From the IMG/VR virus record IMGVR_UViG_2874920711_000002, positions 1-42,995 of that record: a stretch of DNA of 42,995 nucleotides; one strand, 5' to 3'. This DNA comes from a virus (lineage: Duplodnaviria > Heunggongvirae > Uroviricota > Caudoviricetes). Positions 34,188 to 40,166 of the stretch are shown one piece after another. The number at the start of each line of letters is the position of its first letter. The stretch's first letter is position 1. A model generated the notes under the pieces. The model worked only from the letters and a program-made list of their open reading frames with translations, had not been told where the DNA came from and searched no databases. Both the position numbers and the translations under genes were made by a program.

Positions 34188-35102
34188 TCAGAATGTCAGT
34201 TTGTCACTGGATTTACCGAATTTGTCAGACATGGCTCCCAGGCCAGCCAGGACATCGACCTGTCGCTGTCGCCCACCTCCGGGAGCGGCTGGCTGTTGCC
34301 AGAAGTCTTCGAAGTGACGATCGGGTCCAAAGAACGTCGCAGCCTGCTTCACGAACTGTGTGCCGGTATTTCCTGTGGCACGTACCCAGGCAGCATAGCG
34401 TTTCACGCCATCAAGCATGGCTTCAGGTTTTATTCCCTCCCTGAGCCGGGCTTTCCAGGCTTTGAAGGCTGCGGATTTTGAGTTACCACCAGCACGTTTT
34501 GGATATTCCTGCCAGGCCTGTTCAAATTCCGGTGAATATTCCTGTCGGGCAGAACGCGCTGGTGCAGACGCGTCAGCGGATGCGCCAATAGTGTTTTTAC
34601 TCTCTGTAGTATTCTCTGAAGTAATCTCTGTTGTATTCTCTGTAAGATCGAAATTGGTTTTCCCTTCTCCGCGGCGAGGGGTTTCCCGTGTCCGCGGTGA
34701 AGGCTTTCCCTCCTCCGCGAAATTGGGTTTTACAGTTTCCCGAAAACGGGTTTCCCCATTTCGGGAAAACTGATTGTTTTCATTGATAATTTCATTAAGG
34801 CGCTCACAATCTATACGGTAGAACATTTTGTGCTCAAGACGCTTGTTGGTTTCAACCAAAATGCCTCTGGACACAAGATGCTTACGCGCTACAGCCTGTT
34901 GTTCAAATGTAAGTCCGGTTTCGTGTTGTATCTCTTCACGCGTTTTATGTACGCCTTCCGCTGCATGTGCTTTATCCTGCCAGTAAAAAATCTGACCAAA
35001 GAAAATAACAGCGTGCGGACTTCCCATGTATTTAACGAGCCCAGGGTAATAAGCAACCGGATGTCCAAAATCGAGCAGAAGATCAGACGGACGCATAGCC
35101 AC
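34188..35102 (-). CDS. Replisome organizer / replication initiation protein (O-like)
   Basis: N-terminal region (…IFFGQIFYWQDKAH…TREEIQHETGLTFEQQAVARKHLVSRGILVE…) resembles the phage replisome-organizer domain; direct repeats (iterons) lie inside the gene. Confidence 0.65.
   Translation of the reverse strand: MAMRPSDLLLDFGHPVAYYPGLVKYMGSPHAVIFFGQIFYWQDKAHAAEGVHKTREEIQHETGLTFEQQAVARKHLVSRGILVETNKRLEHKMFYRIDCERLNEIINENNQFSRNGETRFRETVKPNFAEEGKPSPRTRETPRRGEGKTNFDLTENTTEITSENTTESKNTIGASADASAPARSARQEYSPEFEQAWQEYPKRAGGNSKSAAFKAWKARLREGIKPEAMLDGVKRYAAWVRATGNTGTQFVKQAATFFGPDRHFEDFWQQPAAPGGGRQRQVDVLAGLGAMSDKFGKSSDKLTF
34656..34770. repeat. Putative origin iterons inside the replication initiator gene
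   Basis: Five tandem ~23-bp direct repeats of the form GGGTTTCCCnnnTCCGCGGnGAA, preceded by short GTATTCTCTG-type repeats (34600-34650) and followed by an AT-rich stretch (34771-34800). Confidence 0.5.
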
Positions 35103-35271
35103 CTCCCAGGCGTTTAAACATTTTTCCGGACTGAAACGCCACCAGCGGATAACTCAGGGTATGAGTACGTCCCTGAACCTGGCAGACAACCTTCTGGCTT
35201 TCTGTATTGACCAGGCAAACCCGCAGAACGTGGCCGTTGCTGGTGGTGAACCACTGCCCCACTCGGGGCAA
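35083..35271 (-). CDS. Hypothetical small protein
   Basis: 62-aa ORF overlapping the replisome organizer start; no recognisable motif. Confidence 0.25.
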   Translation of the reverse strand: MPRVGQWFTTSNGHVLRVCLVNTESQKVVCQVQGRTHTLSYPLVAFQSGKMFKRLGGGYASV

Positions 35272-35311: not shown

Positions 35312-35860
35312 TCATGGGCGCCCCTCCTTGTCAGAACCATTCAGTCTGGAATCAACAAGTGCAGCACCAAAAACAGCATCACCTACACGGTCGTACAGTT
35401 TGCCAGCCAGCGGAGACTCAACGGCCTTAAGCATTGGATAAAGCTGGCTTATCCAGATTTGATGCAGGTATACGCCTCTGGCGTTTCGTGCGACAGCTGA
35501 CATATCAGACGCATCGGCACCTGATAAACTCTTCTCCATCAGGTTAAAGGCGTTGATGTATGCCTCTTTGAAGCGGGCAGCACGTTTGCCAGTGAAGCCC
35601 ATTGCCAGGAATGCGAAGCCGTCGCGGGTGATGTGGTAGCAAGGAAGTTTGCGAGTACCGCCGTTGGGCTGGTGTACCAAAATTGATGTCTCCGCAAAAT
35701 TGCGGGCACAAAACTCTGGAGAACAATCCAAAATGCGGATCTTTTTCAGAACATCGTCATGACGTTTAGAGAAGAAGTCAGCAACAGCCAGAGATGAAGT
35801 AACAGCCTGACCATCAACGATGGCAATTTCAGGTTGAGAGAGGGTTGGGAGTGTAGTCAT
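35312..35860 (-). CDS. Rha-family phage regulatory protein
   Basis: Starting at MTTLPTLSQPEIAIVDGQAVTSSLAVADFFSKRHDDVLKKIRIL…, which fits the Rha N-terminal signature (TSSL, KRH, NVL, IR); the 615-aa ORF in the track over-extends upstream. Confidence 0.65.
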   Translation of the reverse strand: MTTLPTLSQPEIAIVDGQAVTSSLAVADFFSKRHDDVLKKIRILDCSPEFCARNFAETSILVHQPNGGTRKLPCYHITRDGFAFLAMGFTGKRAARFKEAYINAFNLMEKSLSGADASDMSAVARNARGVYLHQIWISQLYPMLKAVESPLAGKLYDRVGDAVFGAALVDSRLNGSDKEGRP

Positions 35861-36172
35861 GGTGACAGCCCCTATGTTGAATTCAAAGAACTCACCACAT
35901 GGGACGCCAATCACAGAGGTGGTGAGACGTACAGGGTTGGCGTAACCGGTCAACATAGAACCCGGCGCATCTTGCGATGCCCCTGCACGCCCCACCATAA
36001 TTTGGGCGTAGCAATGCTCATGACACGAAAAAACCGCATGAGCGCGGTTATGCTCTATATTGAATTTCAGGACGCCAATCCCGGCACCCGCTTTATAAGG
36101 TGCAGAGACAGTGTAACGTCCCGGACTTGCAGAATCAATATCAAAATGTTGTAGCTGTGGACAACGCGAAGC

Positions 36173-36196
36173 CTTGTTGTTATTGTTTACAACAAG
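36173..36196 (+). promoter_or_regulatory. Perfect 8-bp inverted repeat upstream of the plus-strand cassette
   Basis: CTTGTTGT-tattgttt-ACAACAAG, 19 bp upstream of the ORF1 ATG, with another ACAAC at 36161. Confidence 0.4.
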
Positions 36197-36214
36197 AACC
36201 AGAGGAAGCTTTAA

Positions 36215-36502
36215 ATGCCATCCAGACTGTATAAACAGTTCATCCGTCATCTCGGTGAATCTGAATACATACGAATCCGCATATGGGAAGTGGAGCCTGC
36301 TGTATTGGGTAGCCAGCACAACTACAAATACAGCATGGCTTATGTCGTTGATGGCATGTGTGTGATGCGTTACGACAACGAACGGGGTAAAGGCGATCAC
36401 AAACACATTGGTAGTCAGGAAGTCAGCACCAGCTTTGTCACCATTGAACAACTGCTCGCTGATTTTCTGGCTGACGTTGAATCCATCCGCAGAGGTATCT
36501 GA
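36215..36502 (+). CDS. Hypothetical protein, first gene of a two-gene cassette
   Basis: 95-aa ORF with AGAGGAAG Shine-Dalgarno 6 nt upstream; protein-like composition (…GSQHNYKYSMAYVVDGMCVMRYDNERGKGDHKHIGSQE…); its stop is 1 nt from the next start. Confidence 0.5.
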   Translation: MPSRLYKQFIRHLGESEYIRIRIWEVEPAVLGSQHNYKYSMAYVVDGMCVMRYDNERGKGDHKHIGSQEVSTSFVTIEQLLADFLADVESIRRGI

Positions 36503-36503
36503 C

Positions 36504-36863
36504 ATGAGAACCGTAACAATCCGAATCGAGTCAATGGATAATTTCACGGCTGATGTGCTGTCTGCGTTCCAGGAAGCAGCTACCGGAGCAAAAGCAACCA
36601 GAGAAAACGTTATTTCATTTCCTGACTGGCAAATGATGCATAAGGTACTGACACCAAAACGCATGGACATTCTGATGGCAATGACTGGTGCCGGAGAAAT
36701 GTCCATCCGAAAAATTGCAGCCCTGGTTGGACGTGATGTAAAAAGCGTGCATACTGACGTGACCGCACTCATCAGCAACGGTTTACTGGAAAAAAGCGAG
36801 CGCGGAACGTCATTCCCGTATGACGACATCCACTTTGATTTTACGCTGGGCAAGGCGGCGTAA
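36504..36863 (+). CDS. Putative winged-helix transcriptional regulator, second gene of the cassette
   Basis: 119 aa; …KRMDILMAMTGAGEMSIRKIAALVGRDVKSVHTDVTALISNGLLEK… looks like a MarR/ArsR-type winged HTH. Confidence 0.55.
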   Translation: MRTVTIRIESMDNFTADVLSAFQEAATGAKATRENVISFPDWQMMHKVLTPKRMDILMAMTGAGEMSIRKIAALVGRDVKSVHTDVTALISNGLLEKSERGTSFPYDDIHFDFTLGKAA

Positions 36864-37080
36864 TTTTTCGTATATACCGTGCCGTCATTCCGGCGGCGCT
36901 TCACACTCCACAAAATCACGCCTGAACAACCACAACGGGCTGAAACATTCATATGGATAACCATCACGCAGATAAATAACCCGCTGTGTTTCAGGCTCCC
37001 AGCGTATAACGTGGACGCGGCGCCCTCTGCCATCACGGAACCAGCGATTGAGGACTTGCATAAATTACCCGTAAACATCG

Positions 37081-37794
37081 TCACACCTGCCAGCCAGTAG
37101 CCTGAAACAGGCCCATTCTCGGGTGATACCAGCGGGTACCACGCTGAACGGCACCACACATCATGTGATGAAACGCCTTCAGAAACGGTTCCACAGCAAC
37201 AATTTCACGACGTGCCAGTAATCCATCTGGCGTCAAAAATTCATGAGTGTCTGTCGGGATGTTGTATACATTTACAAGCGTGCGACATTTCGCATCTGAC
37301 ATACCGGTTTTTGCTTTCAGCTGGCGATATCCGGCATAGCCCTCACGAATGGTACCCTTTTTGATTTGCTCAACTGTTTCGGCAACATGGCTGACTTTTT
37401 CTTCCACCTGAGTGATCCGTTTCTGCTGGCGAACGGCTTCAAGAGCCATCGCGGCAACCATTTCGATTTCGCTCATTGGTTTGCGCACCTGCTCTTCCAG
37501 TTCGCGCCAACGATCTACCAGGCGGGCAGTGAATTCCGGGCAAAGTTGTGCGACGACAATGATGCTGTCGCGTTTGCCTTGTTCGCCTTCGAAAATATAT
37601 GCGTTTGTGAATTTGTTTTGGCTAAATGATTGTTCGTTCTCAACTTTTTGCATTGCAGGAAGTTGAATCACCCCGCGTTTTGCCAGACGCTCTATTGATA
37701 TTCTGACATTGCCGTGTTGACTTCCAACCAGCTCTGCGATTTCAACGCTGGTCATGGATACTTTGTCGTTAAAAATTGCGGTGTTCACTGCCAT
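37081..37794 (-). CDS. Rha-family phage regulatory protein (second paralog)
   Basis: MAVNTAIFNDKVSMTSVEIAELVGSQHGNVRISIERLAKRG… fits the Rha N-terminal signature. Confidence 0.6.
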   Translation of the reverse strand: MAVNTAIFNDKVSMTSVEIAELVGSQHGNVRISIERLAKRGVIQLPAMQKVENEQSFSQNKFTNAYIFEGEQGKRDSIIVVAQLCPEFTARLVDRWRELEEQVRKPMSEIEMVAAMALEAVRQQKRITQVEEKVSHVAETVEQIKKGTIREGYAGYRQLKAKTGMSDAKCRTLVNVYNIPTDTHEFLTPDGLLARREIVAVEPFLKAFHHMMCGAVQRGTRWYHPRMGLFQATGWQV

Positions 37795-37907: not shown

Positions 37908-38201
37908 ATGAAAGTTCAGGCCGTTGGTTTATTCTGGTTTCGCGATGCGATTCAGTATCATGAGCTCAAAAATATTTTTACTGATGCTGATGTGCTCTCC
38001 GACAGTTACACCGAGTGGAAACACGACGCTGAAAAATTGATTAAGCGTGTCGAAAGAAGCGGGCAACGAGTTATTAAAGTTGAAGCGGATACAGCCGAGT
38101 TCATCGCCTGGTGCACAAGCGAAGGCATTGGAATCAATGCCGAAGGTAGAATGCAGTTCGCATCCTTTAAGGCTTACCAACAACTTCTCAGCGAACGCTA
38201 G
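37908..38201 (+). CDS. Hypothetical protein
   Basis: 97-aa ORF with strong AAAGGAGG Shine-Dalgarno 6 nt upstream; hydrophilic composition; the stop codon is formed at the junction with the IS5-family element. Confidence 0.4.
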   Translation: MKVQAVGLFWFRDAIQYHELKNIFTDADVLSDSYTEWKHDAEKLIKRVERSGQRVIKVEADTAEFIAWCTSEGIGINAEGRMQFASFKAYQQLLSER

Positions 38202-39115
38202 GCTGTGTCCCTTAATTACGTAAGCGTTGATAAAAGAGTCGGATGCAGCCCAGTTTCACCATCGCCAGGTAATTTCTCGCCGTTTTGTCGTAACGCGTGG
38301 CGATGCGGCGATATTCTTTCAGCCGCCCAAAGCACCGTTCAACGATATTACGATTGCAGTACGCATCACGATCAAGCTGTGCACGTCCATCCGATGCCAT
38401 TTTCTCATTTGACTTTCGGGGATTACTGCCTTTATACCGTTATTTTTCAGCTCGTTGCGCAATGCGCGCCCTGAATACGCTTTATCAGCCAGTACCGCAT
38501 GTCCACGGCGTTTCATGCTGCCGTTCTGACGCTGAACGCCAATCCCGTCCAGAAGTCGTTGCGCGAACTGGCTTTCATGAGCTTGTCCGGGGCTTAGCAC
38601 GATATTTAACGGGAGGCCACTTCCGTCTGTTGCCAGATGGATTTTGGTGCCAAAACCGCCGCGAGAGCGACCCAGCCCATTATCTCCGTCGATATCGGGA
38701 TGTTTTTTTGAGCACCGGCGGCACATTTCAGCGCCCGGATATTACTGCCATCCAGCGCGGTGGCAGACCAGTCAATAAAGCCGTTTGCATCAAGTAGCGA
38801 AAGCAACCTGTTGAAAATAATATTAATCACGCCTGACTTTGACCATCGGTTAAAGCGGTTATAAACAGTTTTCCATGACCCATATCGTTCGGGTAAATCG
38901 CGCCATGGTGCACCGGAACATAACACCCAGAACATGCCATTGATGATTTTACGGTGCTCAGCCCATGGGCGTCCGGCCCGTGGTGTGGCGGGTTCAGGAG
39001 GTAACAGGGGCTTGATGATGGTCCATGCCTCATCGGGAAGGTCGTAGCGAGCCATAGTTCAATATGTTGTGTAAACAGACAGTTACTATAGCTCAGATGA
39101 TTAAGGGACACAGCC
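38201..39115 (-). mobile_element. IS5-family insertion sequence (IS427/IS1031-like), about 915 bp
   Basis: Terminal inverted repeats GGCTGTGTCCCTTAAT (38201-38216) and its reverse complement (39100-39115), each flanked by TA; encloses transposase ORFs. Confidence 0.7.
38212..39055 (-). CDS. IS5-family DDE transposase, in three frames
   Basis: ORFs 38606-39055 (MARYDLPDEAWTIIKPLLPP…WRDLPERYG…), 38319-38726 and 38212-38400 (…RIATRYDKTARNYLAMVKL…) together make one transposase of about 280 aa. Confidence 0.7.
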
Positions 39116-39509: not shown

Positions 39510-40166
39510 ATGAAATCTTTAGGTGAACGCCTCATCAACGCACGACAAAAAGCTGGGTTAACGCAAGATGCGTTGGCTAAAAAAGCTGGGGTCACCAGAG
39601 TTGCAATCAGTAAAGCCGAGCAAGGTCTTACAAAAAGTTTCAACGGTGACACGCTTTTTAAAGTCGCAGCGGCACTGCAGTGTTCACCGCAGTGGCTTCA
39701 GAACGGAGATGAAAAAGGTAAGTATTGGGAAAATAATGTTAAGAGCTGTCCCCAGAGAGACACAGCACACTCTTACCCTGTAATTAACTGGGTTCAGGCA
39801 GGATTATTCGCAACTGCAGGTGATGACTACAACATGTATGATCAGGATAATTGGAGGCATTCTGTAAAATACGCTGGTGAGAGGGGCTTCTGGCTGGAAG
39901 TACACGGAGACTCAATGACTTCGCCTATAGGAATAACATTTCCTGAAGGAATGTCGATCCTTGTCAATCCAGATAAAGAAGTTTTTTCAGGGTGTTACGT
40001 CATCGCCAGAAAAAAATCCACCAATGAAGCAACATTCAAAAAATATATTTCTGAAATGGGGAAGGCGTTTCTAAAGCCCCTTAATCCACAATATCCCATC
40101 ATAGAAATGGACAATGATTGCGAAATAGTAGGTGTTGTGGTTGATGCCAGGTGGGATATTTTCTGA
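39510..40166 (+). CDS. cI: CI-type repressor (N-terminal HTH, C-terminal LexA/S24 autopeptidase)
   Basis: MKSLGERLINARQKAGLTQDALAKKAGVTRVAISKAEQG… then …GDSMTSPIGITFPEGMSILVNPDKEV…FKKYISEMGKAFLKPLNPQYPIIEMDNDCEIVGVVVDARW…, closely parallel to the lambda CI C-terminal domain; GAAAGGAG ribosome-binding site. Confidence 0.85.
   Translation: MKSLGERLINARQKAGLTQDALAKKAGVTRVAISKAEQGLTKSFNGDTLFKVAAALQCSPQWLQNGDEKGKYWENNVKSCPQRDTAHSYPVINWVQAGLFATAGDDYNMYDQDNWRHSVKYAGERGFWLEVHGDSMTSPIGITFPEGMSILVNPDKEVFSGCYVIARKKSTNEATFKKYISEMGKAFLKPLNPQYPIIEMDNDCEIVGVVVDARWDIF

Follow-up and report, generated by a model that had tools for sequence, protein, structure and literature searches.

What kind of unit is formed by two short plus-strand genes that lie against the minus-strand early operon of a prophage? 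The question is raised by a 42,995-nt viral sequence (IMG/VR record IMGVR_UViG_2874920711_000002, positions 1–42,995), which corresponds to the immunity/early part of a lambdoid prophage of the E. coli/Shigella type and is referred to below, at its full length, as the window. A preceding sequence-only reading had drawn attention to a pair of open reading frames (ORFs), ORF1 and ORF2, which are separated by 1 nt and preceded by a perfect 8-bp inverted repeat, and had suggested a toxin-antitoxin (TA) or small defence module. Both frames, their lengths, the gap and the repeat were found exactly where that reading had placed them. The present analysis indicates that the pair is quite probably an autoregulated type II TA cassette of the TumE superfamily, in which the toxin gene comes first.

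Family assignment of the two proteins

The product of ORF1 (hereafter tumE) was assigned to the Pfam family PF20126, 'Toxin TumE' (formerly DUF6516), with an E-value of 2.1e-15 and a score of 56.9 bits (cutoff 23.4); the match extends over positions 6–81 of the 81 positions of the hidden Markov model. The wider TumE family has at least 7,999 members, and PF20126 is carried by all 114 close homologues of the protein. A DUF6516-type protein had been suggested tentatively at the outset, together with a His/Lys-rich patch within ORF1. The suggestion proved to be correct, and the patch, GKGDHKH, turned out to be the signature of the family: residues G60, D61, H62 and H64 are invariant, while S33, H35, K38, Y39, Y53, D54, N55, E56, G58 and K59 are nearly so, and TumE of the window retains all of them. 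The AlphaFold2 model of the protein (predicted local distance difference test score, pLDDT, of 94.9) consists of six beta strands and a C-terminal helix. No NCBIfam model matched ORF1, and nothing was found with it in a sequence search of the PDB.

The winged-helix character predicted for the product of ORF2 (a tumA-like gene, hereafter tumA) was confirmed by its match to PF25212 (HVO_A0114; E-value 6.5e-25, 87.2 bits, cutoff 27.6) and by AlphaFold2 modelling, in which an N-terminal strand and helix (residues 3–27, modelled with low confidence) are connected by a linker to a winged helix-turn-helix (wHTH) domain (residues 35–112). The nearest solved folds are those of wHTH proteins of the ArsR/MarR/CadC type. 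As modelled, the protein combines a candidate neutralising segment with a DNA-binding domain, which is the usual antitoxin design, and residues 3–27 are a candidate for the TumE-binding element. Searches of NCBIfam with ORF2 gave sub-threshold wHTH matches only, and a PDB sequence search only weak matches to ArsR.

In the earlier reading neither protein had been placed in a characterised family, and its claim to novelty has to be given up: both match named families, the TumE-TumA system was validated in 2023 (PMC10584680), and RefSeq already labels the two products as 'toxin-antitoxin system TumE family protein' and 'HVO_A0114 family putative DNA-binding protein'. The RefSeq annotation is inconsistent, since in some genomes, e.g. 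that of E. coli CFSAN029787 (locus L102, 1616–1903), tumE is intact and remains unannotated; inactivation of the gene in such cases was considered and rejected, as the ORF of CFSAN029787 is undamaged. In other genomes, over-extended calls start from an ATG inside tumE (position 36250 of the window), which results in a 317-aa 'Rha family' protein (L001, 19198–20151) and a 251-aa 'ash family' protein (L002, 5388–6143), both of which run across promoters and the isrK/C4 RNAs. Many database entries describe the 119-aa homologues of ORF2 as 'glycosyl transferase family 1', an evident legacy misannotation.

Table 1. Features of the tumE-tumA cassette and of the adjacent region (positions refer to the window).
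Feature	Position	Strand	Remarks
tumE (ORF1)	36215–36502	+	95 aa; putative toxin of the TumE/DUF6516 family; PF20126, phrog_16135
tumA-like gene (ORF2)	36504–36863	+	119 aa; winged-helix protein of the HVO_A0114 family; putative antitoxin and autorepressor; PF25212
Putative operator O1	36147–36165	+	palindrome TGTTGT-N8-ACAAC; right half overlaps the -35 hexamer
Putative operator O2	36173–36196	+	core TGTTGT-N8-ACAACA at 36175–36194; -10 hexamer within the spacer
Predicted sigma-70 promoter of tumE-tumA	36158–36186	+	-35 TGGACA (36158–36163); 17-nt spacer; TG-extended -10 TATTGT (36181–36186)
Intrinsic terminator-like hairpin	36841–36873	+	overlaps the tumA stop codon; followed by TTTTTCGTAT (T-run)
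Stop-free antisense frame	35315–37204	-	630 codons; from the 3' region of the DUF4222 gene through the whole cassette, the promoter region, isrK and C4; in frame with Rha1
Rha1, antirepressor-like	35312–35860	-	PF09669, E-value 3.2e-26
Rha2	37081–37794	-	Rha domain, E-value 3.6e-7, 31.1 bits (cutoff 29.9), just passes
DUF4222 gene, right neighbour	36885–37061	-	PF13973, E-value 3.3e-15; last operon gene before the cassette
isrK, homologue of an Hfq-binding small RNA	36027–36103	-	Rfam RF01394, 61.9 bits (gathering score 50); terminator 36049→36032
C4 antisense RNA homologue, leader of Rha1	35915–36002	-	Rfam RF01695, 80.1 bits (gathering score 45)

Organization of the cassette and its regulatory signals

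The two genes of the cassette (Table 1) are joined by the sequence TGAcATG. The ribosome-binding site that they had been thought to share does not exist as such, because each gene has a Shine-Dalgarno (SD) sequence of its own (AGAGGAAG at 36201–36208 for tumE and AGAGG at 36491–36495 for tumA), placed 8–9 nt before the respective ATG. Upstream of tumE, a sigma-70 promoter is predicted from its match to the consensus and from its conservation: in other copies of the cassette the corresponding -35 position reads TTGACA, and the spacer of O2 contains TAT(Y)(S)T. Another promoter-like site, located within tumA (36513–36542), was given no weight, since it lies beyond the start codon.

The perfect 8-bp inverted repeat (CTTGTTGT at 36173–36180 and ACAACAAG at 36189–36196) had been regarded as an operator palindrome of the pair. 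The repeat is real and conserved, but there are two operator-like palindromes in tandem, O1 and O2, 28 bp apart, and the repeat corresponds to the second of them. TGTTGT-N8-ACAAC is matched exactly nowhere else in the 43-kb window; when up to one mismatch was allowed, five matches were obtained in the window, compared with 1.0 +/- 1.1 expected. The position of O1 is conserved in loci L003, L004, L013, L019 and L016. Furthermore, the same two-palindrome geometry (a distance of 28 bp, with the -35 hexamer in O1 and the -10 hexamer in the spacer of O2) was found upstream of tumE across diverged copies of the cassette, i.e. in an E. coli Stx1c prophage, in lambdoid prophages of Salmonella and Serratia, in a Yersinia satellite and in a metagenomic chromosome.

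The operators and the recognition helices of TumA were compared in 60 cassette clusters. In at least 25 clusters, with GC contents ranging from 0.38 to 0.64, the recognition helix RD(V/I)(K/Q/R)xVH is accompanied by GTTG(T/G)-N8-(A/C)CAAC palindromes. The helix RDFRGV(Y/H) is associated with GATGT-N8-ACATC at both operators, and for the helix R(N/H/D)Y.NVH neither palindrome type was found among the compared clusters. All four half-sites thus co-vary with the recognition helix, as predicted for the operator of an autorepressor, which suggests that TumA binds to O1 and O2. The combination expected of a type II TA system, i.e. a wHTH partner and two palindromes placed over the -35 and -10 hexamers of its own predicted promoter, is present, and both the family assignments and the conserved operator pair support the TA or small-defence architecture with a helix-turn-helix partner that had been proposed at the outset.

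In comparisons with other copies of the cassette, the left border of homology is at 36146/36147, exactly at O1, while the right border, determined against independent copies, falls at 36844–36904. Borders located at O1 and just past the terminator indicate that the mobile unit is composed of the promoter/operators, tumE, tumA and the terminator. The segment 36147–36873 is therefore a self-contained, moron-like cassette, which extends from its own promoter to its own terminator.

Pairing and distribution of the cassette

An HVO_A0114 ORF is located directly downstream of TumE in 100 of the 101 loci (the lone exception is cut by the end of a contig), and the same pairing was seen in all 12 contexts inspected by hand. 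Within the TumE/HVO_A0114 subfamily the toxin gene is upstream in every locus. The cassette is rare. Among 5,426 complete E. coli genomes, 18 (0.3%) carry it, the 50,697 phage records include a single example, and it was found on 74 of 72,556 plasmids; a further search of IMG/VR yielded 75 loci. The E. coli copies occupy three different neighbourhoods. The contexts identified include (i) lambdoid prophages, (ii) P4-like satellites (with int, AlpA, Bro-N and primase genes), (iii) a P2-like element in Thiothrix, (iv) plasmids, and (v) plain chromosomal sites; in Anabaena the cassette lies beside another TA pair.

This rarity and the variety of contexts indicate that the cassette is accessory cargo and not a core lambdoid function. 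The latter, which would require presence at this position in most lambdoid phages, was rejected on the basis of the single phage record and of the 0.3% of E. coli genomes. The assumption of the sequence-only reading that the two genes co-occur as mobile cargo, outside the conserved lambdoid core, is thus upheld by the strict pairing, by the unrelated contexts and by the low frequencies given above, and also by a nin-region position in the Stx1c prophage. The copy concerned (L003, 457–1684; E. coli STEC1590, phage record PQ600364.1) is 77% identical to that of the window; it resides in the nin region of a Stx1c-converting prophage, approximately 4.4 kb from stxA1c/stxB1c, with isrK and C4 immediately to its left.

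Relation to known systems and proposed mode of action

The TumE-TumA system was defined in 2023 (Durairaj et al., Nature; PMC10584680). Six DUF6516 toxins (subcluster 1a, originating from environmental Gammaproteobacteria) arrested the growth of E. coli and were neutralised by the product of the adjacent gene; one TumE toxin blocked the incorporation of 35S-Met, and RNase activity was proposed, not shown (PMC10584680). The fold of TumE was described as two helices packed against an antiparallel sheet of seven strands and as lacking relatives among solved structures, and the antitoxin gene was found upstream in clusters 1, 2, 4 and 6 and in all validated pairs, other arrangements being allowed in other clusters (PMC10584680). 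The cassette of the window resembles this system in that a toxin of the same Pfam family, PF20126, is encoded in a bicistronic pair with a partner predicted to bind DNA. There are also clear differences: (i) the toxin gene comes first here, whereas in most of the described clusters it is downstream; (ii) the partner is a 119-aa HVO_A0114 wHTH protein, while the tested TumA proteins, judging from the sizes of the fragments, are short RelB-like or hypothetical ones; and (iii) the toxin is a minimal one of 95 aa from an enterobacterial prophage, in contrast to the validated toxins of environmental Gammaproteobacteria.

Toxin-first type II TA operons are represented by higBA, mqsRA and hicAB. The cassette shares with them the location of the toxin gene upstream of a gene for a DNA-binding antitoxin, the tight or overlapping junction of the two genes, and the palindromes that overlap the promoter. 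The morons of lambdoid phages are cargo cassettes composed of a promoter, a gene and a terminator. The cassette is likewise an autonomous unit placed between phage genes, present in few relatives and at different positions in different phages, but it differs from morons in being a two-gene TA operon that opposes the early operon, and in having the antisense strand kept open.

If the cassette acts as a type II TA system, the sigma-70 promoter would give rise to a bicistronic tumE-tumA mRNA ending at the intrinsic terminator, and the 1-nt gap would allow the two genes to be translationally coupled. A dimer of the 119-aa TumA would bind the GTTGT-N8-ACAAC operators through its C-terminal winged helix and, with one operator over the -35 and the other over the -10 hexamer, would repress its own operon, while the N-terminal segment of about 30 residues would bind and neutralise TumE. 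A loss of TumA, caused by proteolysis or by a shut-off of transcription upon phage attack or loss of the element, would leave free TumE, which would arrest growth by inhibiting translation, probably via the invariant site D54-N-E-x-G-K-G-D-H-x-H64. The outcome would be stabilisation of the prophage or abortion of the infection.

Several observations weigh against this interpretation. TumE of the window is short, and six strands and one helix were modelled for it, compared with the seven strands and two helices described for the family. In the TumE literature searched, only the 2023 paper and its preprint treat TumE (the remaining matches merely cite it), and no experiments on an arrangement with the toxin first and a wHTH partner were found there. 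The validated TumA fragments (289–388 bp with flanks) are too short for a 119-aa protein and probably represent a different antitoxin family. Moreover, a scan of both proteins against PADLOC-DB 2.0 matched no defence-system model: the best E-value for ORF1 was 0.045, and ORF2 displayed only a generic likeness to the wHTH domains of CasR/Csa3/CARF proteins.

The role for which the cassette has been selected could be anti-phage defence or superinfection exclusion for the lysogen, achieved through abortive infection, rather than plain addiction or selfish maintenance. The cassette has a moron-like build and is encoded on the strand opposite to that of the repressed early operon, so that it can be transcribed in the lysogen; furthermore, its carriers include prophages and P4-like satellites, which are known to bear defence cargo, and the Anabaena copy lies beside an AAA_15/AAA_21 ATPase gene in addition to the TA pair mentioned above. 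These arguments are offset by the PADLOC scan, in which only the generic Csa3/CARF-type likeness emerged, and by the occurrence of the cassette on plasmids and at plain chromosomal sites. We therefore regard defence as a possible selected role, though rather an unlikely one. It is compatible with the TA explanation and does not exclude it.

Genetic surroundings and the isrK-C4-Rha1 module

The minus-strand early operon of the prophage comprises, in order, a 69-aa gene in the cro position, Rha2, the DUF4222 gene, the inverted cassette, Rha1, a DUF4222-like gene, a gene for a 304-aa protein and, finally, a gene for a DnaC/IstB-like ATPase. A CI-like HTH-S24 repressor is encoded on the plus strand (39510–40166). 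The presence of Rha genes on both sides of the cassette and the minus-strand orientation of the surroundings, as reported previously, were corroborated, the former by matches to PF09669, of which the first is strong and the second just over the cutoff. The flanks of the cassette were accordingly described correctly, but its placement between two Rha genes of one early operon needs qualification, as the left Rha gene has its own isrK/C4 leader and a putative promoter. Two small genes of the DUF4222 type (36885–37061 and 35083–35271, both on the minus strand; phrog_1343 and phrog_1153) bracket the region, one preceding the cassette and the other following Rha1. A DUF4222 gene is the right neighbour of the cassette also in the Salmonella and Serratia prophages.

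Both isrK and C4, which lie within the 350 nt separating Rha1 from tumE, exceed the Rfam gathering scores (Table 1), and their location beside Rha1 identifies the latter as the antirepressor of a module resembling P1 immI and that of Gifsy-1. They are accompanied by a weak match to the c4-a1b1 target (within 35915–36138, minus strand). An AUG at 35998, inside C4, opens a stop-free frame that continues into Rha1 (228 codons in total), and the position of Rha1 matches that of anrP in the isrK-orf45-anrP locus of Gifsy-1 (PMC4825925). The left flank thus shares isrK, C4, an ORF starting from the C4 AUG and a Rha antirepressor with immI of P1/P7 (c4-icd-ant; PMC8201110) and with the Gifsy-1 locus (PMC4825925). 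It differs from these modules in that the orf45-like frame of the window is fused in frame to Rha; such modules are neighbours of the cassette. A putative promoter of isrK, PisrK (-10 at 36110–36115 and -35 at 36133–36138, read by eye and conserved in alignment A4), is placed back to back with the promoter of tumE, isrK being divergent from tumE.

The presence of isrK and/or C4 immediately to the left of tumE, in divergent orientation, was noted in the window and in loci L002, L003, L019, L020, L048, L049 and L050, with C4 alone in L008 and L047. Neither RNA was detected at the cassettes of L004, L013, L023, L045 and L067, or at any of the 40 more distant loci. In the Serratia prophage of L019 (145–2889), four tandem isrK-C4(-antirepressor) modules adjoin the cassette; in the middle two of them the open frame already extends over approximately 190 nt ahead of the C4 AUG, as far as the stop codon at which the preceding gene ends.

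This neighbourhood brings up a different explanation, according to which the pair is mainly a regulator of the prophage switch and not a poison with its antidote, with the wHTH protein, and TumE as its cofactor or sensor, controlling the divergent promoter of the isrK-C4-antirepressor module and thereby feeding induction or anti-repression. Apart from the adjacency itself, the distance from the 5' end of isrK to the ATG of tumE stays constant at about 112 nt, also in copies whose flank blastn fails to align, and O1 lies 9 nt from the -35 hexamer of the putative PisrK. The spacing between O1 and this hexamer varies, however, from about 3 to 16 nt; control of PisrK by TumA at O1 with a fixed geometry was therefore dismissed as unsupported, all the more so as many cassettes, including those of the distant loci, have neither isrK nor C4. 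In addition, this hot spot is in any case rich in isrK-C4-antirepressor modules, which occur there in tandem, as exemplified by L019, and homologous TumE proteins are proven toxins (PMC10584680). On balance, a role in the prophage switch is improbable, and the type II TA cassette remains the preferred explanation.

An element of the IS4/5 family (approximately 38201–39114; minus-strand ORFs with DUF4096 and DDE_Tnp_1) has been inserted between the gene in the cro position and the remaining part of the early operon; it is lacking from the E. coli prophages of L001 and L002, which are co-linear in other respects. The element probably separates the operon from its promoter, and its location within the early operon suggests that the prophage is probably defective. 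A second plus-strand gene that runs against the early operon (37908–38201) encodes a 97-aa protein of phrog_4753, a PHROG annotated without a function.

Open frame antisense to the cassette

The minus strand opposite to the cassette contains a 615-aa ORF (35312–37159), which is part of a 630-codon stop-free frame (Table 1). Across the cassette this antisense frame contains no stop codons in ten clusters (the window, L003, L004, L008, L013, L019, L047, L048, L049 and L050), whose nucleotide identity is 55–79%, with most pairs below 62%. The number of stops to be expected was estimated for 15 comparable clusters by resampling synonymous codons with both protein sequences fixed. Between 2.4 and 4.9 stops per cluster were predicted, and 0.19 zero-stop clusters were expected versus the ten observed. 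In the first six lineages examined, stop avoidance changes its pattern precisely where the 1-nt gap shifts the frame from one gene to the other: none of the 66 Leu/Ser codons in tumE is TTA, CTA or TCA, compared with 21 of 91 in tumA, whereas junction patterns that would give stops in the phase of tumA are absent from tumA (0 of 35) and make up 25 of 73 in tumE. As a caveat to the inference of selection, the related cassettes L021, L023, L040 and L045 do have stops in the frame.

Each of the ten cassettes has a minus-strand ORF to its left and another to its right. The start of the frame is coupled to the upstream minus-strand gene in six lineages, where an ATG or GTG behind a good SD sequence overlaps that gene's stop codon or lies directly next to it, examples of such coupled starts being ggaggttcattcATGA, ggaaggtggaaggATGA and aggggtaaaaccGTGA; in the window and in L004 the only candidate start is a GTG located 17–20 nt before the stop codon of DUF4222. 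At its far end the frame either joins the C4-AUG/antirepressor ORF without a change of phase or forms an ATGA overlap with the next gene. The antisense translation matched no Pfam or PHROG family, and the possibility that the frame encodes a known protein was rejected on these grounds. The reverse view, namely that tumE and tumA are themselves shadows of a minus-strand gene (the 615-aa ORF or the 317-aa 'Rha' of the PGAP annotation), has next to no probability and is already contradicted. The stop-free frame indeed covers the entire cassette, and the RefSeq Rha and Ash proteins start within tumE, but both plus-strand proteins have confident AlphaFold2 models and belong to large Pfam families that include loci with 3–13 antisense stops, the antisense translation has no family match, and in the 182-aa version of Rha the domain does not begin before residue 21.

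Long antisense overlapping genes have been reported in E. coli O157 and in other bacteria. The frame described here resembles them in being a long ORF fully antisense to annotated genes. It differs in that a whole two-gene operon is overprinted, with the switch in stop avoidance at the frame shift, and in that it is conserved at a nucleotide identity of only 55–62% and coupled to neighbouring genes at both ends. For the plus-strand gene at 37908–38201, one antisense frame is open over 121 codons in L001 and L002 and has start codons near the stop codon of the upstream gene. The same effect as in the cassette was considered for this gene and rejected: one frame is nearly open (one stop), which is not significant for a gene of 294 nt.

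The antisense strand thus appears to be under real selection to stay translatable, most plausibly as a ribosome 'bridge' that would counteract Rho-dependent polarity of the early transcript. The module of the P1 c4/icd/ant type is controlled through polarity of this kind. In a more specific version, which we put forward tentatively and rate somewhat below an even chance, ribosomes that leave the upstream gene of the minus-strand early operon would re-initiate at the coupled ATGA/GTGA, read antisense through tumA and tumE in the selected stop-free frame, and then enter the C4-AUG/antirepressor ORF in frame or pass on by way of the ATGA overlap. The early transcript would in this manner be covered by ribosomes over the approximately 650–1,000 nt of inverted cargo, and would be spared Rho-dependent polarity.

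Significance

As a TA module, the cassette belongs to an already named family, and its significance in this respect is modest. The analysis places the TumE family in prophages of E. coli, Shigella and Salmonella, including a Stx1c phage, and in P4-like satellites, and it exposes a series of annotation errors, i.e. tumE genes that have been dropped, Rha and Ash proteins that have been over-extended, and a misnamed wHTH protein. It also delineates a subfamily in which the toxin gene comes first and the putative antitoxin is a wHTH protein, and whose operators follow a readable code, in which GTTGT corresponds to RDVKxVH and GATGT to RDFRGV[YH]; this code makes cross-talk and specificity directly testable. 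The antisense frame could be of greater importance. It is a statistically strong example of an entire operon whose opposite strand is under selection, accompanied by signals of translational coupling. If the bridge interpretation is true, cargo inserted against an operon must be 'translation-transparent', which would be a previously unnoticed restriction on inserting morons and defence genes. The frame also suggests that phages may follow a general rule in tolerating cargo that opposes the direction of transcription.

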